Positions 14,035-61,626 of a DNA stretch of 61,626 nucleotides are shown here, one piece after another (position 1 is the stretch's first letter; every line of letters begins with the position of its first letter). Position numbers and translations under genes: made by a program. This stretch comes from a virus (taxonomy: Duplodnaviria; Caudoviricetes). Where the stretch lies: positions 1-61,626 of IMG/VR virus record IMGVR_UViG_3300036853_000113; one strand, given 5' to 3'. The notes beneath the pieces are model-generated. The model was not told the DNA's origin. It saw only the letters and a program-made list of their open reading frames with translations, and made no database searches.

Positions 14035-17000
14035 TTACCGCCCTCCCGGAACACGTTTCGAGTGTTCCGCGCCTGCGTGCAACGCGCTGCTGACTGCAGA
14101 GCCATGCACTGCGATCAGCGCCTGTCTCGTGCGCTGCTCAGTCAGCACAGGATCAGTGCCGCGCGCGTCGATGGTGTAGTAGGCAGGCGCACCGCCAGAG
14201 CCTGACATCATGCGCTGAGAAGCGGCGTTGCTCGTGATGTTGCCCGACGCGCCTGTCAGAAGCTCAGGCCCCTGCTCGCCGACAAGATACGCGCTGCCAG
14301 GGGAAACGGATCCACCTTCCTTGTGAGGCGTCAGAAATGACCCGAACACTTTCGACAGAATGCCCATGAAGCCGCCGCCGCCTGCGCTCTTGCCACCGCT
14401 GTCACTGCTGCCTGAGTCGCTTCCAAGGCCATCGGATTCGAGTCCTGCAAAGCCGCCCAAGCCTGCGCCGTCGACGAGCTTGACCCAGAAGGGGCTGCTC
14501 TTCGAGCCGTCAGCCTTAGCGGTATCGCCAAGAAGTCCACCCAGTGTTTTACCTAACGCGCCTGTCTTTCCCAACGCAGCGATGCCCTTCTGCATGCCTG
14601 ACTTCAGCGTTGAGTCGAGCATCTGCTTGCCGATGTCTTTGAACATTGCGCCGAAGTCAGCCTTGCCGCCTGTCATCAGTTCCGTCAGGTTGGTCGATAG
14701 TTTCGTGAAGGTCGAGTTAAGCGCGTCGAAGATGATCGACGCTGCGGTCTGCGCCTGCTTTCGCATGTTCAGAAAGAACGCATCGACGCCAGCGCTGAGG
14801 CTGTCCTGCCGCAGCAGACTGTCAACGGTCTGATCAATCATCTTGTTGAAAAGTTCCTGCTGGCGCGCCGCGATTTGCAGCTGCTCACCGTAGCTGATCT
14901 TGCCATTCTTGAGTCTGCTCAACGCAGCGACTGCATTGTCGAGAGCAACACTCTCGCGCTTGTATTGCTCATGAGGCGAGAGCAGCGAGACAGCTTCCTG
15001 CGCGTCGCGCTCGTCCCACTCTGCTTCTGTCATTGCGACGGTTGCATCGCGCGTTTTGATCAGCTCGTCGCGCTGCGGCCCCAGCGCCATCGTCGCAATC
15101 TGGTAATTGATTCCGACCAGCTTCGCCTGAAGCGCTGCCTCCCGCTGCACGTTGATGTCCTCAAGCGTCGCAGATGTAACGAGCTGCTTCGAGGTCAACT
15201 CGCGGCCCATCGCTTCGAGGTTAGCGACAACCGCGACAGTCTCATCAGCCATCGCCTTCGCGTACAAGTCTTTGGCGCGCGCTGCAATCTGATCCGTGGT
15301 CGCACCTTGCTCTGTCAGCTCGTTTTCAGCCTGCGCTTGCGCGTTCTGTTTCGCGATGGCGTCGGTGCCCTGATAGATCGCATTGATCATGCGACCGGCC
15401 TGACTGACGCTGAGCGCCGTCGCGCGAGTCCCAGCTCCGATGAGGTCATTCATCTTCGCCATGTGCGCCTGATCAGAAAGCAGCGCCTCGCCATGCAGCA
15501 GCAGCTGTTTGGTCGATTCACTTACCAGCTTCGCGAAGTCTTTTGTTTGGCTGTGCGTTACTTTCGCGATCTCCTGACCTAGTTTCAGGATTTCGTCGTT
15601 TGCCTTGTTCGTTGCCATCGCCTTGCGCTGCGCTTCCTCGCCCAGCCCTGACGCTTCCAACGTGAGCTTCGAGTCTCTGAGTCGCTCCGCCATATTCGCG
15701 CGCGCCTGCGCGTCTGGATCTTCTGATTCTTTTCCCAGACCAGATGTGTCGGGTGATTCCTTCGCTTTCGGTTTAGGCGCTACAGTCCTGTCATCCCCGG
15801 AAGAAGCAGCCGCAAGCCGCTCGTTCTTTGCTTGATTGAGTGCGTCCACAGCCCACTGAGGCGTGAGCTTGCCCAGCGCGCGGTTGATCCACTCCATCGC
15901 CTTGCTCCACATCTTCGAGAGCGCAGCCTCAATCGCCTGCCCACCGATCAGCGTCATCAGTGAGTTCCAGAGGCTCTTGCATTTATCCACAAGCTTCATG
16001 AACTCGTCGCCGAAAGCGCGCACAACGTTCTTCATGACAATCCATGCGGCGTTCCAGGTATCGCGAATCTGGTACGTCTCGCCCTTCAGCGAGAAGACAG
16101 AGTTGCGGAACTTGTAGAGCACCGCGCCGAGCGCGATGATCGCCATCGCTGCAATCGTCCAGGGGTTGCTGAGCGCAGCCAGCATCAGCGCTTTGCTCGC
16201 GTTCCACGCACCTGAGACGACCATCGACAGGAAGCCGGGAATTGCTTGCAGCGCGCCGCCTAACGAGGCGAACATCGATGCAGGACTCAGCGCCTTGATC
16301 GCAGCGAGCGAGGTGCCGACGCCACCGAAGCCGGTCCTCACGCCGAGCGTAGCTGTCTCCATGAAAGTCAGCTCCTGCGTGGCTCTGCCGAAGGAGCTGC
16401 CCATCGCTGCGATAGACTCACCGAGTTTGGGGATCGTCGCTGCGACGTTTTTCATGCCCGTCATCTTGAGCACGAAGCCACTGATGCCAGCGCCCGCCTT
16501 CGCGAGTCCACCTCCAGCTATCAGGTCAGTGACCAGCGGGAGCGCGATGCGACTGAGCTGCAATGCGATCAGCGCTTCGAGCGCGATCTTCAACTCGTGC
16601 GCGTGCTCGGTGGCAAAGCTGAGAGCGTTACCGACTAAATGGATTGCAGAAGTGACGTTGCCGCCGAAGGATTTCGCGAGGCCCTGCAAGTCGCTGTTAT
16701 TCGCAATCTGTATCAGGCGATTCAGCAGTTCGTCGAGCGCAGGCAGGGTTGCCGCCATCAGCGAGAAACCCATCCCTTCGAAGACTGCCGAGAGGCGGTC
16801 TAGATTGTCGTGCGCACGCGCTGCAACCTCGCCGGTCGACGTCGAGAGCACCAACCCGAAACGGTGCGCTTCCTCGTTGACCTTATCCTGTTCCTCGCCG
16901 TACTGATTCAGCAGCGGCAGCAGCGCTGCCCCGCCCTTGCCGAAGAGCGCCATCGCGAGCGCCGTCTTGGCCGCGCCGTCTCCCAGGGTTGCGAACTTTT

Positions 17001-37527: not shown

Positions 37528-37697
37528 CGCGCCAGCGAGTGAAAGTTATCCATAACCCGCCGAGAGCACCAATGAAGGCGAGTGAGCCACAATCCGCGAG
37601 AGCACCATGGGTAATGAGCGAACCATGTCCGGCGAGAGCACCAACAACGGAGAGTGAACCACCGAGGATGAGAGCACCAGAAAACATGAGTGAACCC
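37527..37697 (+). ncRNA. TIGR-type dual-repeat array A (4 full plus 1 degenerate 36-nt units)
   Basis: GAGAGCACCA-N8-GAG(T/C)GA(G/A)CCA-N8 period, e.g. gagagcacca atgaaggc gagtgagcca caatccgc. Confidence 0.8.
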
Positions 37698-37944: not shown

Positions 37945-39824
37945 AAGTGAGCAAAGCAAAGTTGAAACATTTCCGCAGCCACCGCCATACTGTGCTGCAA
38001 TTCGAGCGCGTGAACTTCCTTCGCGGCCTGAACAAGAGTGGGAAGTCGAGCGTCGCGCAGGCAATCGAGATGGCTCTCAGTGGCCGCTGCTCGCTGACTG
38101 ATGAAGGCGGCAGAGGCTGGGAGCAGCTCATCGAAGAAGGTGCGCAGACAGCCACGATCGTGCTGGAGTGTCCTGCGTTCACGGTCACGCTGACGCTCGA
38201 CCGCACAGTCGGTCGCACGTTCAAGGTCGAGCTTCCCGGCACGACCATCCTCGGCAAGCAGGCGCAGGATTGGCTCGCAGAGAAGATTGCGCCGCCTGAC
38301 GTGATCAATGCCGCCCTGAACGCATGGCGCTTCATTCGCATGGACGAGAAAGATCAGGCGTCACTACTAGCGCGCGTTCTGCTGCCTGCGAAGCTGGAGC
38401 TAAGTCAGGAAGTATCCGACTGGCTCGGTGCAAACCGCCTGTCGGTGGTCGAGCGCCCGACACTCTTCGCCACCATCGAGGCGACGCATAAGGCCATCAG
38501 CTTCGCGCGGACTGAGGTTAATCGCAAGCTGCGCGACCTGAAGGCGATTGTCGAGCCCGATGAGGTCACAGGCAGTCGTGATGCAGTCAAGGCGAAGCTT
38601 GGCGACTTGCAGGCGCAGCAGACCGAAGCGAACCGGAAGCTGCTCGCGCTGTCGACGCGCGAGACTGCTGACCGGATGACCGCTGACCAGAAACTGATGT
38701 ACGAGCGAGACATCGACGCGCGCACGAAGGTGCTTACCGAGCTTCCCCCGCTCCTGTCGGCGAAAGCAGTCGAGAAGCTCGAAGCAGCTGCCCGGCTGGG
38801 GGTTCGTCACGCAGAGGTCCGCGCGTTGTTAGCTGCTGAGCGCCTCGCCCTGACGTCGGCTGAGCAGGACGTGGAGAAGCTCAGCAAGGACGACGAAACA
38901 GGCGTCTGCCCTACCTGCAAGGCCACGCTGACAGAAGCCTCGCGCAAGGCTATGTTCGCTCCGTACATGAGCAGGCTGAACGACGTTCACGCCACCATCA
39001 AGCGCTTAGAGAAGGAACTGAAAGACACCAGCGACAGCGAAGAAGCAGCGGCCCAGCTCGCGGCCCACAAGAACGAGGTACGACGTCGCGAGGAACTGCG
39101 CGAGACGCTGGAGCAGCTGCGGGAACGTCACGCCACACTCTTCGCTGTGAGAGAGCGCGAGCCGCTCGACTTCACTGAGACGGCTGAGCAGTTGCAGACA
39201 GAACTCGAAGCCTTGAAGCAGCGCATCATTCGCGGCCTCGATGTGCTGGTGAAGATGGTCGAGGCCGAGGAAGCTGTCAAGCTCTACAAGTCGCAGATGG
39301 CAGAGCGCCAGAAGGCCGAAGCCAGGTTGTCCGAGCTGGAGAAACTGCTCGACTACTTCGGCCCCAGCGGTATCAAGGCGAAGCTCATCGCAGAGCGCCT
39401 GAGCCTCTTTACAGAGCGCGTGAACGCTGTCCTGCAATGGTGGGGTTATTCACTTTCATTCACTATCGAGCCCTACAGTCTGCGCATCACTGAGGCCGAT
39501 ACCCCGCACATCAGCCTGACACCGAATCAGCTGAGCGAAAGTGAGAGTTACCGGCTTGGCATCGCCTTCGCGGTTGCAATCGCGCAGTGGACCGGCCTGC
39601 GGTTTCTCATCGCCGACGCAGCTGACATCCTCGACAAGTATGACAAGTGGAACTTGGCGCAGGCGCTGCTGGAGTCTGACCTCGACCAAGCCATCGTAAC
39701 GTCGACCGGCATCGCTCCTGTGTTCGAAGCAGAGGGTACGGCCTTTTACACGCTGTCGAAAACAGGCGGCATCACGGCAACAGAACTGGACGCGCAGACA
39801 AGTCTCGCGACAACGAGCGTATGA
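37941..39824 (+). CDS. SbcC/Rad50-like SMC ATPase with zinc hook
   Basis: Walker A GLNKSGKS, long coiled coil, CPTC hook, LSESE signature, LIADAAD. Confidence 0.8.
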   Translation: MKVSKAKLKHFRSHRHTVLQFERVNFLRGLNKSGKSSVAQAIEMALSGRCSLTDEGGRGWEQLIEEGAQTATIVLECPAFTVTLTLDRTVGRTFKVELPGTTILGKQAQDWLAEKIAPPDVINAALNAWRFIRMDEKDQASLLARVLLPAKLELSQEVSDWLGANRLSVVERPTLFATIEATHKAISFARTEVNRKLRDLKAIVEPDEVTGSRDAVKAKLGDLQAQQTEANRKLLALSTRETADRMTADQKLMYERDIDARTKVLTELPPLLSAKAVEKLEAAARLGVRHAEVRALLAAERLALTSAEQDVEKLSKDDETGVCPTCKATLTEASRKAMFAPYMSRLNDVHATIKRLEKELKDTSDSEEAAAQLAAHKNEVRRREELRETLEQLRERHATLFAVREREPLDFTETAEQLQTELEALKQRIIRGLDVLVKMVEAEEAVKLYKSQMAERQKAEARLSELEKLLDYFGPSGIKAKLIAERLSLFTERVNAVLQWWGYSLSFTIEPYSLRITEADTPHISLTPNQLSESESYRLGIAFAVAIAQWTGLRFLIADAADILDKYDKWNLAQALLESDLDQAIVTSTGIAPVFEAEGTAFYTLSKTGGITATELDAQTSLATTSV

Positions 39825-40282
39825 CGAAAACAGAGTACGCGGAATATCTTCAATCCGAGCACTGGAAACGACTTCGACGTGAGGCGATTACTGACTGTCC
39901 TGAGTGCTTTCGCTGCGGGATTCCGCGCGACCTTGCGCGGGAGATTTATGACCAGGACTTACACGTTCATCACAAGCGATACAACCTCTGGCGTGAAGAC
40001 CTGAGTGATTTAGAAGTGCTGTGTCGCCGTTGTCATGACATCGAGACACACGGCGGCACGAGGATTCGACAGGCTCCCGGTTACCCCGCGCCAGATCTGC
40101 GACAGGTGATCTCCGAGCCTCCGTGTGAAGTCGTGGTGTATCGCAGCGGCTTCGGTCATCCGGTTATTAGACAGGCTGCTGGCGTCGGAGAACTTGAGGA
40201 CGCCCGCATCTATCTGCGGCAAGGCGATTTGCCGAGACTGATTCGCGCGCTAGTTGCCCTGGAGCGTGGTCGTGCTGAATGA
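39821..40282 (+). CDS. HNH endonuclease domain protein
   Basis: YAEYLQSEHWKRLR...CFRC...LHVHHKRY...DLEVLCRRCH. Confidence 0.8.
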   Translation: MTKTEYAEYLQSEHWKRLRREAITDCPECFRCGIPRDLAREIYDQDLHVHHKRYNLWREDLSDLEVLCRRCHDIETHGGTRIRQAPGYPAPDLRQVISEPPCEVVVYRSGFGHPVIRQAAGVGELEDARIYLRQGDLPRLIRALVALERGRAE

Positions 40283-43440: not shown

Positions 43441-43540
43441 GTCGCGGTAGGGCCAGCCTGGGCCCGGTATGGCGTGACTGGGCACGGCGGGGCAAGGCGA
43501 GGGCTCGCGTCCTCAGAGGCGCGAGCACAACACTAACGAA
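43441..43540 (+). ncRNA. GGY-NN pentamer tract plus hairpin, unit 1 (putative guide RNA)
   Basis: 11 in-register pentamers 43446-43500, hairpin GCTCGCG..CGCGAGC 43503-43526, A/C tail. Confidence 0.75.
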
Positions 43541-43570
43541 CGATCTCACGGCGAAAGAGAGAGCTTCCCA

Positions 43571-44206
43571 ATGTACAAAACACTAACGCGCACTCTTGTT
43601 GGCGTTTCTCCGCTACTGATGCACAACGGACGGTTGGCGAATCCGCTGGATCCTATTGCAAAGATGATGAAAGAGGTCACGTCAAAGCGGAAAAAAACAG
43701 ATGACGATTACGAGCTGATGTCGAACATTGAGTGGCTGGGTTCGATCTACACCACCGATGACCTCACGGTCAAGATTCAGGGCTACAAGGTAACGGTCGC
43801 GTGCTTCGGCCAACTCTGTATTCCGGGGGAAAACGTGGCGGCGTTGCTAGCGTTCGCCGGAGCCAAGTCACGCCGGAAGCAGGCGTTCACCGCAGGAATT
43901 TTAATCGAGGGCGACTTCCCGTTGCAGCTGGCTAGTTCGCTGAGCATTCCCGAGATATTCGCAAAACCGGGTTATCGCCTCATCGAAGGAGTGCGCGTTG
44001 GGAACTCTCGTGTGATGCGGACACGCGCTATCTTTCGTTCGTGGAAGCTCCCCCTTCGGATTCAGTATCTTCCGCAGTTGCTTAATCCCCGCGAAGTAGA
44101 TGAGACGCTCATCCTCGGTGGTCAGATCGGAGGGCTCGGAGACTATCGCCCGAAGTATGGCCGGTTCTCTGTGGAGAATGTCGCAGGAGAGGCGCAGGCG
44201 GCCTAA
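43571..44206 (+). CDS. Stand-alone Cas7/RAMP-like RNA-binding protein (Vipr-like)
   Basis: LVGVSPLLMHN (beta1), LCIPGENVAALL (RAMP IPG helix), RTRAIF..W, C-terminal Gly-rich loop GGQIGGLGDYRPKYGRF. Confidence 0.75.
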   Translation: MYKTLTRTLVGVSPLLMHNGRLANPLDPIAKMMKEVTSKRKKTDDDYELMSNIEWLGSIYTTDDLTVKIQGYKVTVACFGQLCIPGENVAALLAFAGAKSRRKQAFTAGILIEGDFPLQLASSLSIPEIFAKPGYRLIEGVRVGNSRVMRTRAIFRSWKLPLRIQYLPQLLNPREVDETLILGGQIGGLGDYRPKYGRFSVENVAGEAQAA

Positions 44207-44228
44207 ACAGAATAGACGGTTGCATCAG

Positions 44229-44352
44229 GGCAAGGTGTGAGCGTGGCTTGGTAAGGCGGTGGCGATGGCGCGGCTGGGCGGGGTATGGCAGGATCCGGTT
44301 TGGCATGGTTTGGTTCGGAACCGCGTTCCCAGGAGCGCGGAAGTTTAGTAAG
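44229..44352 (+). ncRNA. GGY-NN pentamer tract plus hairpin, unit 2
   Basis: About 17 units (three are 6 nt) 44229-44316, hairpin CCGCGTTC-CCAG-GAGCGCGG 44321-44340, tail AAGTTTAGTAAG. Confidence 0.75.
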
Positions 44353-44366
44353 TCAGTCTCACACGC

Positions 44367-44468
44367 GGCGGGACACGGCTTGGCGTGGCGGGGCTAGGCG
44401 GGGATCGGCACGACTAGGCGGGGCAAGGCAGGGACCCGCGCTCTCAGAAGCGCGGAAAGTTTAAGAAA
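44367..44468 (+). ncRNA. GGY-NN pentamer tract plus hairpin, unit 3
   Basis: 13 in-register pentamers 44367-44431, hairpin CCGCGCT..AGCGCGG 44436-44455, tail AAAGTTTAAG. Confidence 0.75.
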
Positions 44469-44493
44469 CGATTTCCTCGAACTTCTCGTTCAT

Positions 44494-44643
44494 GGCTTGG
44501 TGGGAACGAGGTGCGGCACGGCGGGGTGAGGCCCGATGAGGCCCGGTATGGCAGTGTAAGGCGTGGCCCGGCTGGGTGTGGAATGGCCTGGTGTGGTGTG
44601 GCAGGGGGCCGCGTTTTCCGGAACGCGGTCACAACTAAACAAA
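44494..44643 (+). ncRNA. GGY-NN pentamer tract plus hairpin, unit 4
   Basis: About 22 units 44494-44604 (19 in strict register), hairpin GGCCGCGTT..AACGCGGTC 44607-44630, tail ACAACTAAAC. Confidence 0.75.
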
Positions 44644-44655
44644 CGGAGATGGGAA

Positions 44656-45099
44656 ATGCAATCACGGTATCCACTCGACTGGGAGTTACTACAAAAGGGC
44701 GACGTGCTCGACGCTGAGACGCTGAAGGATATAACTGGAAAGACGCCGGGAAGTGATGAGTTTCGATTCGCGTGCATGGGCCTGCAAGCATTGATTCAGG
44801 AGAAGACAGGCTTCACTGTGAAGCTGCCGAGTGATAACTCACTGCGCGTGTTGACAGACCCAGAGGCAGCAGCGCACAACGAGCGCCTGTTCTGGCAATT
44901 CATGCGGTCGATGGTTACACGCCACACCCTGAACTGCTCTGTCGACGTCGACAATCTAGAGGCGACACAGCGAGCGCAGCATGACCGCACGCTGCTTGCT
45001 CAATCGCGTTACGTATCAGCAGTGGCGCAGACGACGAAAGAGATTGTGCTTGCAAGAAATCCTCCCGAGCCAGAACCGCTCGACGATGGAACGCGATGA
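44656..45099 (+). CDS. Hypothetical protein, candidate accessory of the RAMP/GGY-NN locus
   Basis: ATG 44656 with GGAG RBS directly after the last hairpin unit. Confidence 0.65.
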   Translation: MQSRYPLDWELLQKGDVLDAETLKDITGKTPGSDEFRFACMGLQALIQEKTGFTVKLPSDNSLRVLTDPEAAAHNERLFWQFMRSMVTRHTLNCSVDVDNLEATQRAQHDRTLLAQSRYVSAVAQTTKEIVLARNPPEPEPLDDGTR

Positions 45100-45617
45100 T
45101 CACGACGAAGGCATTCAATGAGGTCACCGCGCAGAAGCGTCGCTCGATGGCGGCGCGGCTGAAGCCTCGTTACTGGAAGTCAGGCAAGCGCGCAGGCATG
45201 GTGCGCACGCCAGGGTGCGAGCTGCCGTTCAGCCTGCACCAGTTTCGCCAGTGGGCAATGGAGAAGGTCGGCCTCGGCATCGTGTCATGTCACTACTGCC
45301 CTCGGCCTGTCGATGTGTTGAGCTTCGAGCCGGATCACTATGTACCGATCGCACTCGGCGGAAGCTTCGGCCTCGACAACCTTGTGGTGAGCTGTAGCGA
45401 CTGCAACAAAATGAAGGACTCGATGCTGCCGCAGGATTTCATCGACCTGATGAAGTTCCTCGAAACAAATATGTCGCGAGTGAGTGCGAACAACGTCACG
45501 AAGCGCCTGCGAGCTGGCTCGATGGGCATCAAAAACAGATTTCATAAACCGTCAGTTGAGGGAGCGAAGAAACCGCCTGCGCCTGTCGCGACGACGCAGG
45601 AGATGGATTTCTTCTAG
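45096..45617 (+). CDS. HNH endonuclease
   Basis: CHYC...FEPDHYVPIALGGSFGLDNLVVSCSDCNKMK. Confidence 0.85.
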   Translation: MITTKAFNEVTAQKRRSMAARLKPRYWKSGKRAGMVRTPGCELPFSLHQFRQWAMEKVGLGIVSCHYCPRPVDVLSFEPDHYVPIALGGSFGLDNLVVSCSDCNKMKDSMLPQDFIDLMKFLETNMSRVSANNVTKRLRAGSMGIKNRFHKPSVEGAKKPPAPVATTQEMDFF

Positions 45618-46173
45618 CCATCTTCCTAGCGAGCACCAGAAGAACTGAGCGAGCCATGTAACCCAATAGCACCACGAGACAGTGAGCGAGCCAAGCACAG
45701 CGAGAGAGCACCAGCAAATGAGAGCGAGCCATAACATGCGCGAGCACCAGATAAGTCGAGCGCACAGCCGGATGACATGCGAGCACCAATAACGGAGAGC
45801 GAGCCACGAGACGTGAGAGCACCAACAACCCAGAGCGTCAGCCACTTCACTTGCGAGTACCAATCATGCGGAGCGCAGCCATGAGAAAGGAGAGCACCAA
45901 GATTGCTGAGTGAGCCAAGATGCCTGAGAGCACCAGAAAAAGAGAGCGCAGCCAAACAGCGCGAGGGCACCAATGGTAAGGAGCGAGCCCGGATATGGCG
46001 AGAGTGCCAACAGGAGTGAGCGAGCCAACACAGTAGAGAGCGCCAGGAAGAAAGAGCGCAGCCACAATGAACGCGAGCACCAGCGCTCCAGAGCGAGCCA
46101 ATGTAGTAGAGGGCGCCATTGACGCCGAGCGAGTCAAGCAATTCGAGAGCACCCAGAGCACAGAACGATACCA
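45616..46173 (+). ncRNA. TIGR-type dual-repeat array B (15 units of ~36 nt)
   Basis: Alternating G(A/C)GAGCACCA and GAG(C/T)G(C)AGCCA repeats separated by 8-9 nt variable spacers. Confidence 0.85.
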
Positions 46174-46196
46174 GTTACACAAAGGAGCGCAACACC

Positions 46197-47108
46197 ATGA
46201 CTGATCTTGTTTTAGAGCCGCTGCAACGTCTTACGAAAGACCTTGCGAACGCCTCCATCACCCTCACCGTCCGCGAGGCGCGTTACCTCGTCGATGCTTA
46301 CTACATGCTTCAGGAGAATCGCATCGCTGCTGATCATCAGGTGCGCACGCTCATTAAGGGCGACGAGCCGCATCAGGTGATTGAATGGCTCGCGGCTCAG
46401 AATGAAGGGCTTGAGCACCAGATCAAGCGCGCGCTCGACAAGTGGACGGACGGCAATCCTGTCGGCGTGTGGGCGAAAAGCATCTGCGGTATCGGTCCTG
46501 TCATCAGTGCAGGACTGCTCGCGCACATCGACATTGCCGGATGCCCCACGGTCGGCCACATCTGGAGCTTCGCCGGTCTGGACCCGACGAAGAAGTGGAA
46601 CAAGGGCGAGAAGCGGCCATACAACGCATCGTTGAAGTCGCTCGTCGCATTCAAGCTGGGCGAGTCGTTCGTCAAGGTTCAGGCGAATCAGAACGACATC
46701 TACGGGAAGGTATATGTCGAGCGGAAGAAGCTGGAGCAGGAACGCAACGAGGCGCAGCTCTTCGCAGCGCAGGCGAAGGTCGGGCTGGAGCGCGTAAAGA
46801 AGACGACGGACGCGCATAAATACTACAAAGAAGGCAAGCTGCCGCCAGCGCAGATACACGCACGAGCACGACGCTATGCGGTGAAGCTCTTCCTCGCGCA
46901 TTACCACGCGGCTGCGTTCTTCTCGCGCTTCGACATGATGCCGCCGTTTCCGTATGCTTTCAGTCATCTCAAGAGCCACGTACATTTTCTTGCACCGCCT
47001 AACTGCCATTTGATCGAAGGCATGCCGGCTGCGCTTGCACGTTATGAGCGCGAGCTACTGGAGAGTCAGGCAACCAAAGCCGTCGAGAGTACCCAGATTG
47101 CTGAGTGA
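46197..47108 (+). CDS. TIGR-associated Nop-domain protein without nuclease domain (TasA-like; IS110 C-terminal-domain homologue)
   Basis: Coiled coil then WAKSICGIGPVISAGLLAHID...IWSFAGLDP...ARARRYAVKLFLAH; no N-terminal RuvC DEDD; flanked by arrays; AAGGAG RBS. Confidence 0.85.
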   Translation: MTDLVLEPLQRLTKDLANASITLTVREARYLVDAYYMLQENRIAADHQVRTLIKGDEPHQVIEWLAAQNEGLEHQIKRALDKWTDGNPVGVWAKSICGIGPVISAGLLAHIDIAGCPTVGHIWSFAGLDPTKKWNKGEKRPYNASLKSLVAFKLGESFVKVQANQNDIYGKVYVERKKLEQERNEAQLFAAQAKVGLERVKKTTDAHKYYKEGKLPPAQIHARARRYAVKLFLAHYHAAAFFSRFDMMPPFPYAFSHLKSHVHFLAPPNCHLIEGMPAALARYERELLESQATKAVESTQIAE

Positions 47109-47368
47109 GCCACGCATGACGGAGAGCACCACAAACCGTGAGCGAACCAAGTAGGTTGAGAGCACCCGGAACGACGAGTGAGCCATCACGCGGGAGAGCA
47201 CCACAAAACACGAGCGCAGCCAGAACTCCTGCGAGCACCAAGAATAGAGCGAGCCAATGATTCGGAGAGCACCAGTTGGGAGTGAGCGAGCCAAAGAAAA
47301 AAGGAGAGCACCACCAATGCAGAGTGAGCCAGCGACCAAGATAGCACCGGAGCAGGAGAGCGCGATCA
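47069..47368 (+). ncRNA. TIGR-type dual-repeat array C (8 units)
   Basis: Same repeat pair; first unit overlaps the 3' end of the Tas gene. Confidence 0.85.
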
Positions 47369-47673
47369 CAAGGATCATCGCCTTCCTTTACGACCTGTAT
47401 GTCAACAAGTGTCTAGAGTCACTCGCGCGGAAGGACCGGCTGAACTACGTGCGCGCATCGAGCAACACGCGCTTGGAACTGGAGTGGGTGCGCTATACAG
47501 ACAGTCCAGATTGTCTGCTGATGATCCGAAAGCGCTACGCTGACGGGTCGACGGCGCGTATCGTCCTGACGGAACGCGAGGCAGAGGTCATCTTGCAGCT
47601 TCATGCGGAGCCGCACACGATCAACGAATTAGCAACGACTGGAGCAGAAAGGAAAAAGATTCATGCGTGCTGA
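47317..47673 (+). CDS. Hypothetical protein, start uncertain, overlapping the end of array C
   Basis: AAGGAG at 47301 and ATG 47317 lie inside the array. Confidence 0.4.
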   Translation: MQSEPATKIAPEQESAITRIIAFLYDLYVNKCLESLARKDRLNYVRASSNTRLELEWVRYTDSPDCLLMIRKRYADGSTARIVLTEREAEVILQLHAEPHTINELATTGAERKKIHAC

Positions 47674-48331
47674 AGAAACGTTCTTTCGAGGTTATCGCCG
47701 CGAGACACTGATCACTGGGGCGACGGTGCTATGCAACGCAGCAGGCGAGAAGCGACTGAAGCTGTCGATGAGCCTGCCGCTGTCGGGTGATCAGCTTGTC
47801 GGGATGCCATCGTGGGTTGGTGAGCCTTTCGCAATCATCGCCAAGCCGGAATACAAAGTGAAGTCTATCAACTGCACGACAGAGCTTGACCCGATGATCC
47901 TGCACGTCTTCGCGTTGCCGGAAGGCGAGAAAGAGATCATGACTCTGCACTCGGTGCGCCTGTGCAGCTTCAGAATCGAGCGCGAAACCGACGAGGAGTA
48001 TCCGCCGATAGCGCTCAACTTCAGCACATACGTTCCCGGCACTGGGAAATTTCTGAAGTTTGCAGATGACTACTTCGAGAAGTCAATCTTCATTCGGTAC
48101 GAGGCTGCGCAGCAGAGCCTTCTCGACGACAACCCCAACCAACAACCTGTCGACCCGGCTCCGCTACTGATGCCGCCGAACGGAGCAGCGTCGAAGCCAC
48201 CCAGCGATGACTTCGAAGAAGACAGGAAGGCTGCGAATGATTCTGCGCTGGACCCTGAATTTGAAATGCCGAAGCCAGCGGCAGCAGCGAGACGAGCGAA
48301 ACGTGCTCCTGTCGAAGTCGGCGTTCAATAA
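47663..48331 (+). CDS. Hypothetical protein
   Basis: 222-aa ORF with RBS. Confidence 0.65.
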   Translation: MRAEETFFRGYRRETLITGATVLCNAAGEKRLKLSMSLPLSGDQLVGMPSWVGEPFAIIAKPEYKVKSINCTTELDPMILHVFALPEGEKEIMTLHSVRLCSFRIERETDEEYPPIALNFSTYVPGTGKFLKFADDYFEKSIFIRYEAAQQSLLDDNPNQQPVDPAPLLMPPNGAASKPPSDDFEEDRKAANDSALDPEFEMPKPAAAARRAKRAPVEVGVQ

Positions 48332-48512
48332 CCACGAGGGGCTGAGAGCACCAAACGATGCGAGTGAGCCAAGTAGCCAGAGAGCGCCAAGGTCGGCGAG
48401 TGAGCCAGTGACCATGAGAGCACCATTGCACTACGCGCGAACCAATTACGCCGCGAGCACCACACTTGTCGAGTGAGCCAGGATGTCTGAGAGCACCACA
48501 CACGGAGAGCGC
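48330..48512 (+). ncRNA. TIGR-type dual-repeat array D (5 units)
   Basis: gagagcacca aacgatgc gagtgagcca agtagcca ... with 36-nt period. Confidence 0.8.
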
Positions 48513-59829: not shown

Positions 59830-60020
59830 TAATTCAGCGCGATTTGAGTAAAAGCGCGTGAATCTACGTGCACACGAAATCAGTAAGTTATAGATTTTAT
59901 AGGGTGTTAGGAGCTTCTCGAAGTATAACTACACCATTTTTTAACTCTACTGTTTTCAGTTGTTTACGGTGATCGTAGAAACCCGTGTGTCGCTTTTGTG
60001 CCTCTTTTCTACTATAATTA
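59830..60020. promoter_or_regulatory. AT-rich divergent region upstream of integrase; candidate attP/promoter
   Basis: AT-rich, TATAAT at ~60013, imperfect inverted GTGCAC-containing repeats ~59795-59880. Confidence 0.35.
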
Positions 60021-60028
60021 GCCTCACC

Positions 60029-61435
60029 ATGAAGACCTCCAGCGAAGATAAATACCAACTGAAATCGCCGCAAGCAATCGTCAAAGCCTATACCCGGCAC
60101 ACAGCGAAATGCCCTCATAGACGAAAGAAGAACTTCAACCAGTGCTCTTGCGCGAAACATCTCAGCATCAGGCTTCGCGGGCAGCAGCCGGTCAGACGGA
60201 CGCTAAACACACCGTCTTGGGCAGACGCGAAAAAGGAAGCCGATAAGGTCATCGAATCGCTCGATCCGAAAAACCAGCGGCTGGCCGAACTGGAGCGCGA
60301 GAAAACGAAACGTGTCTTCGCTCGCGTATCGCTCGCCGAATCAATCACGCGTTTCCTCGAAACCAAGCGACAGGAATTGGCGAAGGACTCCAGAACGCCG
60401 AATCAATATAAGGTTGCAACCAATATGCTGACTGTCTGGGCGAAGGAGCGCAGCGTCACGCATCTAGACGAGATCAAGGACACGGACCTGGAACGCTGGT
60501 ACTGGCAGACGGATGTACCGACAGCTTGGGGTCGGTTGAAGGAGAGCACCCGTTCCCAGCGCTGGACCATGCTGCGCAGCTTCTTTCTTTTCTGTAAAAC
60601 TCGACGGCTGATCGACGACAACCCCATCGCGCTGATTAAGAAGTGCAAGGCGGACAAGTCGGTCCAGGGTCCTTACTCTGTAGCACAGGAAGAGCAGCTA
60701 CTTCAGGCAGCGCTTTCGCTTCCCATTCCCTACTCAATTCCGCGCCGCGACAAGGCGGTCTATCGTCAGCGCCTCTTTGCCTTTATCTTGCTCCTGCGCT
60801 ATACCGGCTCTGACGTCTGCGACGCGATGGAGTTCAGACCGGAACGAATCAGGAGCCAGGAAATTGATGGCGAGCTGGCATTCAGCTACAGCTACTTCCG
60901 GCGAAAGACGCGAAACAGCAAAGCGCACCGAATCCCCTGCGTCATGGAACTGCCTGACTGGGTGGCGAAGACTCTCCTAAACGTTCCCCTGTCGTCGACC
61001 GATTCCGCGGAACTGCCATTCCGCGGCCAAGGTCAACTGCGCTCCGATTTCTGGTCAGCTCCGATCATGCGCTGCTTGACACAGGCCGGGATTACGCACG
61101 TCTCCTGCGGCAAGGGAAACGACAACGTCGAGCGCTTCCATACAGCGAACGTGAAGCAGCTGCGCCACACCTTTGCCGTCCGACAGCTGAGTCTGGGTTA
61201 TTCCTGGGAAGAAGTCGCCGGTATGCTAGGCCACACCGATACCGAGATGATGCGGATTCACTACGCGCCGTTTGTTGACGAGCTCTATACTGCGACGGTT
61301 GCGCGACAGGCAAGAATGCGGAGAGCTGCCGAGGGCTCGACGCGGAAAGCACTCTCAGCGAACCACGGTCTCACCCTCGTTTCCCCAGCTTCGCGTGAAC
61401 TCGCTCAGCTACGCTTTCCGGAATCCGCATCGTGA
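60029..61435 (+). CDS. int: Tyrosine recombinase / integrase with atypical catalytic motifs
   Basis: SAM-like core (LRSFF.FC..RRLIDDNP), RYTGSD, KQLRHTFAVRQL, MLGH, MRIHYA. Confidence 0.85.
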   Translation: MKTSSEDKYQLKSPQAIVKAYTRHTAKCPHRRKKNFNQCSCAKHLSIRLRGQQPVRRTLNTPSWADAKKEADKVIESLDPKNQRLAELEREKTKRVFARVSLAESITRFLETKRQELAKDSRTPNQYKVATNMLTVWAKERSVTHLDEIKDTDLERWYWQTDVPTAWGRLKESTRSQRWTMLRSFFLFCKTRRLIDDNPIALIKKCKADKSVQGPYSVAQEEQLLQAALSLPIPYSIPRRDKAVYRQRLFAFILLLRYTGSDVCDAMEFRPERIRSQEIDGELAFSYSYFRRKTRNSKAHRIPCVMELPDWVAKTLLNVPLSSTDSAELPFRGQGQLRSDFWSAPIMRCLTQAGITHVSCGKGNDNVERFHTANVKQLRHTFAVRQLSLGYSWEEVAGMLGHTDTEMMRIHYAPFVDELYTATVARQARMRRAAEGSTRKALSANHGLTLVSPASRELAQLRFPESAS

Positions 61436-61595
61436 AGTAGCTACGCTTGAGCTTGCGCCCGACACGGCGCGAGGGCTGCCCGATCAACAGGACGCCGTCC
61501 TCGGCTTCGAACAACCTGCGCAGCGTCGCCGTGCTGACGCCCCAGATTTCGGCGAGTTCCTGCAAATGAAAGTGTCTCTCGATGGCGGTCGGCAT
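61371..61595 (-). CDS. Excisionase-like wHTH protein
   Basis: ERHFHLQELAEIWGVSTATLRRLFEAEDGVL...MRIPESVAERV; GGAGG RBS. Confidence 0.65.
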   Translation of the reverse strand: MPTAIERHFHLQELAEIWGVSTATLRRLFEAEDGVLLIGQPSRRVGRKLKRSYFTMRIPESVAERVHAKLGKRG

Positions 61596-61626
61596 TTCTG
61601 AATCCTCCAGGTAATTGGAGTCGATT
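61500..61626. repeat. Terminal direct duplication (copy 2 of 1-127)
   Basis: Exact match to the window start. Confidence 0.9.

Follow-up and report, generated by a model that had tools for sequence, protein, structure and literature searches.

The stretch of DNA considered here, hereafter the window, is a viral record of the class Caudoviricetes (IMG/VR record IMGVR_UViG_3300036853_000113; 61,626 nt). At its centre of interest is a gene for a 303-amino-acid protein with a Nop domain and no nuclease, which is accompanied by four arrays of short alternating repeats. Taken together, the repeats, the protein and its relatives make it very probable that this locus represents a TIGR-TasA system of the dual-repeat kind, borne by a complete temperate tailed phage within its replication and early gene block. 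Each defining feature of such a system that can be tested from sequence was found, with the exception of the terminator that is "typical" after an array. The system is most likely an RNA-guided DNA binder and repressor.

Organization of the repeat arrays

The arrays are built from two repeats of 10 nt, both of which end in CCA. The A-type repeat is GAGAGCACCA and the B-type repeat is GAGYGAGCCA, the latter also occurring in forms extended by 1-3 nt, for example GAGCGCAGCCA. When the two 10-mers were mapped across the whole window and the repeats were parsed from the CCA end of each, the A and B types were found to alternate strictly, on the + strand only, and to be concentrated at four sites. 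The CCA end is present on 28 A-type and 25 B-type repeats in the window, and both types start with GAG as opposed to the UG reported for TasR arrays. Across the four arrays, the distance from one repeat to the next is exactly 18 nt in 43 of 57 cases (range 16-21), which sets the unit at 36 nt and places an 8-nt spacer behind each CCA. Ten of the 14 length variants fall on the B repeat. In all, the four arrays comprise 28 complete A-to-A units of 36 nt and 61 spacers representing 60 distinct sequences.

Two of the arrays flank the gene for the Nop-domain protein, termed tasA below. Upstream, array 2 (45629-46154, + strand) consists of 15 A-type repeats, the putative edge repeats, and 14 B-type repeats, the putative loop repeats, and contains 14 complete 36-nt units. 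It starts 12 nt past the stop of an HNH gene (45617) and decays into the ribosome-binding site of tasA (AAAGGAG, 46181-46187), which lies 10 nt ahead of the ATG. Array 2 is non-coding: each of its three + strand frames is interrupted by stop codons (8, 6 and 7). Downstream, array 3 (47085-47349, + strand) has 8 A-type and 7 B-type repeats forming 7 units. Its first repeat falls within the last codons of tasA (stop 47106-47108), and its last units contain the ribosome-binding site and ATG (47317) of the following open reading frame (ORF). A first-pass annotation, made by a model from the sequence alone, had counted 15 A-repeat units upstream and 8 downstream of the 303-residue gene; the CCA-anchored parse gives the same 15 and 8, agrees with the motifs and coordinates proposed for these two arrays, and fixes the spacer at 8 nt.

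Beyond this pair, two more arrays were found at 37562-37697 and 48344-48498, both on the + strand. The first of them, array 1, comprises 4 repeats of each type, of which the final B is degenerate, with 8-nt spacers and all 7 distances at 18 nt. It sits between an exonuclease gene (stop 37527) and a small ORF (start 37700), 8.5 kb upstream of tasA. The second, array 4, has 5 A-type and 4 B-type repeats in 4 units and starts 13 nt past the stop of a gene for a 222-amino-acid protein (47663-48331; g47663). An equivalent of array 4 was found in relatives whose TasA is 82% identical.

The level of repetition expected by chance was obtained from 100 dinucleotide-preserving shuffles of the window. 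With at most one mismatch, GAGAGCACCA occurs 32 times where 6.78 +/- 2.56 occurrences are expected, and none of the 100 shuffles reaches 32; 26 of these sites are in the arrays, all on the + strand. Similarly, GAGYGAGCCA occurs 34 times (23 in the arrays) against an expected 16.58 +/- 4.55, and again none of the 100 shuffles reaches the observed number. Tandem Repeats Finder alone returned only fragments of the arrays, and a fixed-lag autocorrelation scan returned array 1 only, so that a motif-chain finder was used in its place. The A type is probably the edge repeat, being both the first and the last repeat in three of the four arrays and the less variable of the two in length.

The only duplicate among the 61 spacers is AGATTGCT, and each copy is followed by the loop repeat GAGTGAGCCA (45900-45917 and 47095-47112). 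One copy lies in array 2; the other is at the beginning of array 3 and supplies the codons for the last TasA residues and the stop codon. Copying of a unit from one array to another may have left this duplicate.

As a candidate for the same stretch of repeats, a CRISPR-Cas array was considered and ruled out. The yardstick for such an array was a single repeat of 25-36 nt, spacers of similar size, and cas genes; what is present are two alternating 10-nt repeats with 8-nt spacers, and no cas genes were found among the annotated neighbours of the arrays. The window gave no Rfam matches and contains no tRNAs.

The TasA protein

The tasA gene (46197-47108, + strand) is the only tas gene in the phage genome, and its product is a nuclease-less Nop-domain protein. 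The GIGP and AGLDP motifs that had been read from the sequence initially are located at residues 98 and 126, respectively. From Pfam, only a 40-residue piece of PF02371 is recognized (residues 94-133; E 2.5e-4). No DEDD, RuvC or HNH domain was matched by Pfam, and no DEDD match appeared at E up to 10, in keeping with the original remark that the gene lacks a RuvC DEDD domain. PHROGs place the protein in the "transposase" family phrog_4285 (E 4.6e-47). Among solved structures, a phmmer search ranked TasR first (9mty_A, E 1.2e-11) followed by TasH (21kl_A, E 5.1e-6), with the IS621 recombinase at only E 0.098. TasH was also recovered by a local tblastn search of the Salicola phage record (E 1.6e-8); tblastn of TasA against the phage collection at E 1e-5 gave no match.

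An AlphaFold2 model made from 40 relatives has a mean predicted local distance difference test score (pLDDT) of 90.1 and a predicted template modelling (TM) score of 0.87. When the model was compared to the PDB with Foldseek, a check that the first-pass annotation had proposed, the top 10 matches were all TasH or TasR chains from cryo-electron microscopy (E 3.4e-7 to 1.1e-5; query TM 0.50-0.59), which points to a Nop fold of the Tas type. The IS110-family recombinases rank below the Tas chains at E 2.9e-3 and worse. In the model, the domain order is a helical hairpin at the N-terminus (residues ~12-85, the predicted dimer interface), the Nop domain, and a flexible loop at the C-terminus. About 56 residues, modelled as part of a helical hairpin, precede the portion of TasA that aligns with TasR from residue 139 onward. 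This short N-terminal part, together with the lack of a Pfam nuclease match, is the reason for describing the protein as having no nuclease domain. Directly upstream of the start codon is an array with stops in all frames.

The candidacy of TasA as an IS110-family recombinase was examined separately and ruled out because the protein has no DEDD domain; the IS621 match (E 0.098) and a fold rank below all of the Tas chains were considered as well.

Prediction of a TasA homodimer gave a score of 0.53 as compared to 0.00 for the best of three controls, with an interface formed by residues 12-79. Among 30 proteins whose solved structure is a pair of one chain, 20 reached the mark used for this prediction, as did 1 of 23 whose solved structure is a single chain. 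At least 70% of the contacts agree between prediction runs and the pLDDT of the partner is at least 78. It should be kept in mind that the predicted dimer may reflect the likeness of TasA to solved Tas dimers and, in that case, would not be independent evidence.

A feature of the C-terminal loop is a candidate catalytic dyad for guide-precursor cutting, Tyr253 and His261 (codons spanning 46953-46979, + strand). These residues align with Y289 and H296 of SpTasH, which are described as the catalytic pair for metal-independent cutting of its guide precursor (PMC13421893). Across the 40 relatives, 43 TasA positions are invariant, including H261, and Y253 is conserved in at least 90%. Residues 251-260 are the only low-confidence part of the model (pLDDT 53); they contain Tyr253 and are directly followed by His261. 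The low confidence of this predicted loop is consistent with flexibility.

Conservation among related loci

TasA belongs to a sizeable family. From 7,221 candidates of similar length, 5,939 proteins were retrieved at E up to 1e-3, and 412 of 437 candidate stretches of viral contigs encode TasA relatives. For comparison of loci, the best 80 of the 412 were examined with the motif-chain finder, the strand opposite to tasA serving as a built-in control. The tasA strand carries one or more arrays of at least 6 repeats in 77 of the 80 loci. Summed over the loci, 150 arrays lie on the tasA strand and none on the opposite strand. In 38 loci there is an array upstream of tasA and in 62 one downstream, 23 loci having arrays on both sides. 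In 13 loci there are at least 3 array segments, some of them kilobases from tasA, so this phage is not alone in having dispersed arrays. The overlap of array 3 with the end of tasA also has parallels: 14 of 63 loci of the clade have a downstream array that begins no later than the tasA stop.

The terminal trinucleotide of the repeats, known as box C, is informative in this set. When the most frequent box C of each repeat type is taken, 43 loci have CCA/CCA, 17 have CCG/CCG and 3 have CCC/CCC, and in 74 of 75 loci both types share the last base. This agreement is not imposed by the motif-chain finder. In the account given by Faure 2025 (PMC12045711), covariation of box C in the two repeats is ascribed to binding by a symmetric dimer. 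The agreement in 74 of 75 loci matches the covariation that would be expected for such a dimer, and the 80-locus set may thus be taken as independent, sequence-level support for the published model.

At closer range, the gene order of HNH, array, tasA, array, g47663 and array is kept in a relative with an 82%-identical TasA. None of the 61 window spacers recurs behind box C in relatives at this level of identity, even as the repeats are kept. A pattern of conserved repeats and variable spacers is what would be expected of guide arrays. Turning to the record of the 82%-identical relative, which is classed as a provirus, the final base of the contig is also that of tasA, and the HNH gene and an array fall within the contig's first 700 bases. 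The record looks like a circularly permuted genome broken inside an array.

Comparison with known systems

The initial assignment of the locus to the TIGR-Tas architecture, and to its TasA class, holds up by the dual-repeat layout, the CCA box C shared by both repeats and the Tas-type fold, and all of its proposed checks that were run turned out in its favour. Among described systems, FpTIGR from Flavonifractor plautii (Faure 2025, PMC12045711) likewise has a solo Nop-domain protein without a nuclease. With the FpTIGR-type dual-repeat systems described there, the locus shares two alternating short repeats, a 36-nt unit, arrays on both sides of the gene, a CCA end on both repeats, and a phage or provirus as carrier; the likeness is drawn from the published description and not from the FpTasA sequence. 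Three differences can be noted. The spacers here are 8 nt, for 16 variable nt per guide, whereas 9 nt is given as usual; there are four arrays, one of them at a distance of 8.5 kb from tasA; and the arrays abut neighbouring genes with no terminator after them.

SpTIGR-TasH from Salicola phage CGphi29 (PDB 9w03, 9w04 and 21kl; PMC13421893) is also phage-borne and is among the best structural matches. It is reported to have 16 nt of total variable sequence per guide (Faure 2025), and the Tyr/His pair is present at aligned positions. However, SpTasH possesses an N-terminal HNH nuclease that cuts DNA, and TasA of the window, at ~20% identity, has no HNH. The best sequence match among solved structures is TaTasR (PDB 9mty). 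The Nop fold and a coiled-coil dimer, the latter predicted for TasA, are common to both proteins, but the N-terminal RuvC domain of TaTasR, ~130 residues in length, is absent here. In addition, TaTasR is described as using 9-nt spacers.

In terms of function, the nearest descriptions concern MbTasA and TasR repressors with a dead RuvC domain (Xu 2026 preprint, 10.64898/2026.09.09.750476). As described, these are nuclease-free and combine RNA-guided DNA binding with reversible repression of transcription. Their function is experimental, whereas that of TasA here is inferred, and they are likened to it by description and not by sequence or array type. Finally, the IS110/IS621 bridge-RNA recombinases (PDB 8wt6 and 9t56) have in common with TasA an RNA-binding Nop-like domain, seen as the PF02371 piece and in Foldseek matches at E 2.9e-3 to 2.7e-2. 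Their DEDD catalytic domain, single bridge RNA and mobility are not seen here.

Dual-repeat TIGR-TasA systems entered the literature in 2025, and a 2026 preprint describes TasA acting as a repressor. The locus adds no new principle, and it may already be listed in table S1 of Faure 2025 or in TIGRSafari. What it offers is a clean native example, set in a complete genome of a temperate phage that has terminal repeats and a candidate host lineage, in which 28 complete guides in four arrays are served by one tasA and a VIPR silencing module lies next door. The natural targets of TIGR-Tas systems and their role in phage biology are left open in the discussions of Faure 2025 and Xu 2026.

Proposed mechanism

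In the proposed mechanism, the four arrays would be transcribed as part of a + strand operon. Read-through from neighbouring genes seems the likely route, because the arrays abut those genes and no promoter or terminator signal stands above chance between 34 and 50 kb, where 4 promoter-like sites were found against 4.4 expected. The arrays start 12-35 nt past the preceding stop, or inside the preceding gene, and extend into the ribosome-binding site of the gene that follows. A TasA dimer would bind the CCA (box C) and GAG ("box D"-like) ends of the repeats, and the precursor would be cut inside the A-type repeats by Tyr253/His261 to yield guide RNAs (tigRNAs) of 36 nt (5 + 8 + 10 + 8 + 5 nt). 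TasA is reported to bind 36-nt RNAs (Faure 2025, PMC12045711).

Each ribonucleoprotein would then recognize a DNA site of 16 bp, in which spacer A would base-pair with one of the strands and spacer B with the adjacent stretch of the other. The site would read as spacer A and then spacer B in reverse complement, an order that is derived from the 8-nt 3' overhangs and the "C - 5" cutting rule reported in Faure 2025. Without a nuclease, bound TasA would block transcription or replication of the target. As a precedent, MbTasA is reported to repress targeted genes and to bind target DNA in an electrophoretic mobility shift assay (Xu 2026 preprint). As for what is targeted, a competing mobile element is the most likely candidate and the host a possible one. 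Since no target was found, this step of the mechanism is the weakest.

A fairly doubtful extension of the mechanism concerns the position of the arrays. In this reading the four arrays are not transcription units of their own but form part of the gene junctions of one early operon, and if TasA cuts within the A-type repeats by means of its Tyr/His site, guide maturation would chop the polycistronic mRNA at all four junctions. Under those circumstances, one cut would fall 14-23 nt before the tasA stop and leave a tasA message without a stop codon. Production of guides would thereby be tied to a feedback that controls TasA together with the neighbouring replication genes.

Target searches and points of doubt

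Searches for targets took spacer A plus the reverse complement of spacer B as the expected site, and used the three other arrangements and a shifted pairing as controls; beyond the phage's own genome, gaps of 0-2 nt were allowed. The results are the first of several points that weigh against the proposed identity and mechanism. With the arrays masked, neither the expected arrangement nor any of the three control arrangements gave the 29 A-B and 28 B-A spacer pairs a site with at most one mismatch in the phage's own genome; at 2-3 mismatches, the controls had sites as often as the expected arrangement. Five related phage genomes (310 kb) and 80 related tasA loci (692,570 nt, searched in both directions) yielded no target either. 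Likewise, there was no exact site in 53 loci around related capsid or primase genes (657,592 nt) or in 120 contigs (1,111,951 nt of ~4.3 Mb, or 26%) of the metagenome-assembled genome (MAG) to which the phage has been assigned. A second point is the lack of a rho-independent terminator after any array, terminator-like sites between 34 and 50 kb numbering 11 against 14.7 expected, although such a terminator is described as "typical" and not obligatory (Faure 2025, PMC12045711). Third, the probable assignment of the A type as edge repeat draws on array ends and length variation. Fourth, transcription of the arrays and processing of the guides are themselves inferred, by analogy with published systems. 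Lastly, self-processing is not universal in the Tas family, given that TaTasR reportedly leaves its own precursor uncut (Faure 2025, PMC12045711).

The remaining comparisons concern related guides and the controls. The 190 guide pairs of the five related phages gave no exact site in their own 310 kb. For guides of the window, sites with one mismatch were equal to those of the control arrangements in all of the target searches. Of 2,312 distinct guide pairs from the 80 related loci, a single one has an exact site in this phage, with a 2-nt gap, at 16008. This site is treated as chance, since simple arithmetic gives ~0.2 exact sites of this kind and since related guides searched against related loci gave exact matches only in the controls (5 and 7, against 0 in the expected arrangement). 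For sites of 16 nt, larger databases cannot discriminate, as pointed out in the discussion of the Xu 2026 preprint. The value of control-matched negative searches is that they narrow where targets are not.

Alternative explanations

Since an HNH gene (45096-45617) lies directly upstream of array 2, at 12 nt and in the same orientation, one alternative is a split nuclease in which this free-standing HNH protein acts in trans with TasA and cuts guide-selected DNA in the manner of the fused TasH. The protein matches Pfam HNH_5 (E 3.5e-9) and HNH (E 1.6e-8), its PDB matches include the HNH domains of Cas9 (E 1.1e-4) and of IscB-like proteins, and a 71%-identical HNH occupies the same place in the relative with an 82%-identical TasA. 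Nonetheless, a specific tie to TasH is missing: TasH is absent among the 12 PDB matches of the HNH protein at E up to 1, and tblastn at E 1e-3 found no match to it in the Salicola phage genome that encodes TasH. Furthermore, only one of the 80 related loci has a homologue (tblastn E up to 1e-5, by which an HNH of another family would escape) next to tasA. The presence of another free-standing HNH gene, at 39821-40282, indicates that such genes are scattered through this phage. With no tie to TasH and a single co-occurrence with tasA, the split nuclease is improbable.

Another alternative is self-regulation, in which the guides would aim at the phage's own promoters or origin and, for example, silence lytic genes in the lysogen. 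The phage is temperate (integrase at 59960-61435, PHROG 1), and regulation of the viral life cycle is named as a possible role in the discussion of the Xu 2026 preprint. Set against this, the own-genome search of 57 spacer pairs described above yielded no site with at most one mismatch and no excess over controls at 2-3 mismatches, and so self-regulation is given very little weight.

That the gene is a decayed IS110-type transposase lying beside meaningless simple repeats, with no RNA-guided function, is scarcely credible: Pfam (PF02371) and PHROGs (phrog_4285) do name only the IS110-family transposase, and several database sources label the relatives "transposase", but the DEDD domain is absent, the structural neighbours are Tas proteins and not IS621, gene and array are paired in 77 of 80 relatives, always on the strand of the gene and with covarying repeat ends, and 43 positions are invariant across 40 relatives in a family of 5,939 proteins. 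The behaviour of a mobile IS110 element, which the first-pass annotation had named as one of the cases that would overturn its reading, likewise finds no support given the lack of a DEDD domain and the synteny conserved with the 82%-identical relative. A TIGR-TasA system remains by far the better description of the locus.

Phage genome and neighbourhood

The window is the whole of the viral record. Its first 127 bases are repeated at 61500-61626 as a direct terminal repeat, giving a genome of ~61.5 kb, and the viral collection classes the record as having direct terminal repeats and being 100% complete. Genes for terminase, portal protein, major head protein and integrase are present in the window. 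The integrase-like gene, of the tyrosine type, is located at 59960-61435 (PHROG 1, E 2.7e-21), and it is because of this gene that the phage is called temperate. As judged from its gene content, the carrier is a temperate tailed phage.

On the + strand, the replication block begins with the exonuclease gene followed by array 1, an SbcC-like gene, an HNH gene, a DnaD-like loader and a primase/helicase. Next come the gene for a Vipr protein, an unknown gene, the HNH gene that adjoins array 2, array 2 itself and tasA. The block continues with array 3, two unknown genes and array 4.

With respect to the host, a contig of 61,618 nt encoding a 100% identical TasA is filed in a MAG titled Pyrinomonadaceae bacterium (~4.3 Mb). 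The GC content of the phage is 58%, and that of the first 80 MAG contigs fetched is 54.5%. By binning only, this suggests an acidobacterial (Pyrinomonadaceae) host. The stretch is contained in one DNA sequencing run, from a soil metagenome that may be its source, and there was no RNA run containing the locus among the listed runs.

A second RNA-guided module, unrelated to the first, is found at 43441-44650, which is 1.4 kb upstream of array 2. This is a VIPR module, whose protein of 211 amino acids (43571-44206) matches the SUSP1 Vipr protein (PDB 36pp_D, E 1.1e-23). Runs of GGY-NN pentamers follow the Vipr gene at ~44230-44620. Two VIPR preprints that were searched make no mention of TIGR. 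Within the 80 related loci, a Vipr homologue occurs next to tasA in none, and the pairing of Vipr with TIGR is therefore particular to this phage.

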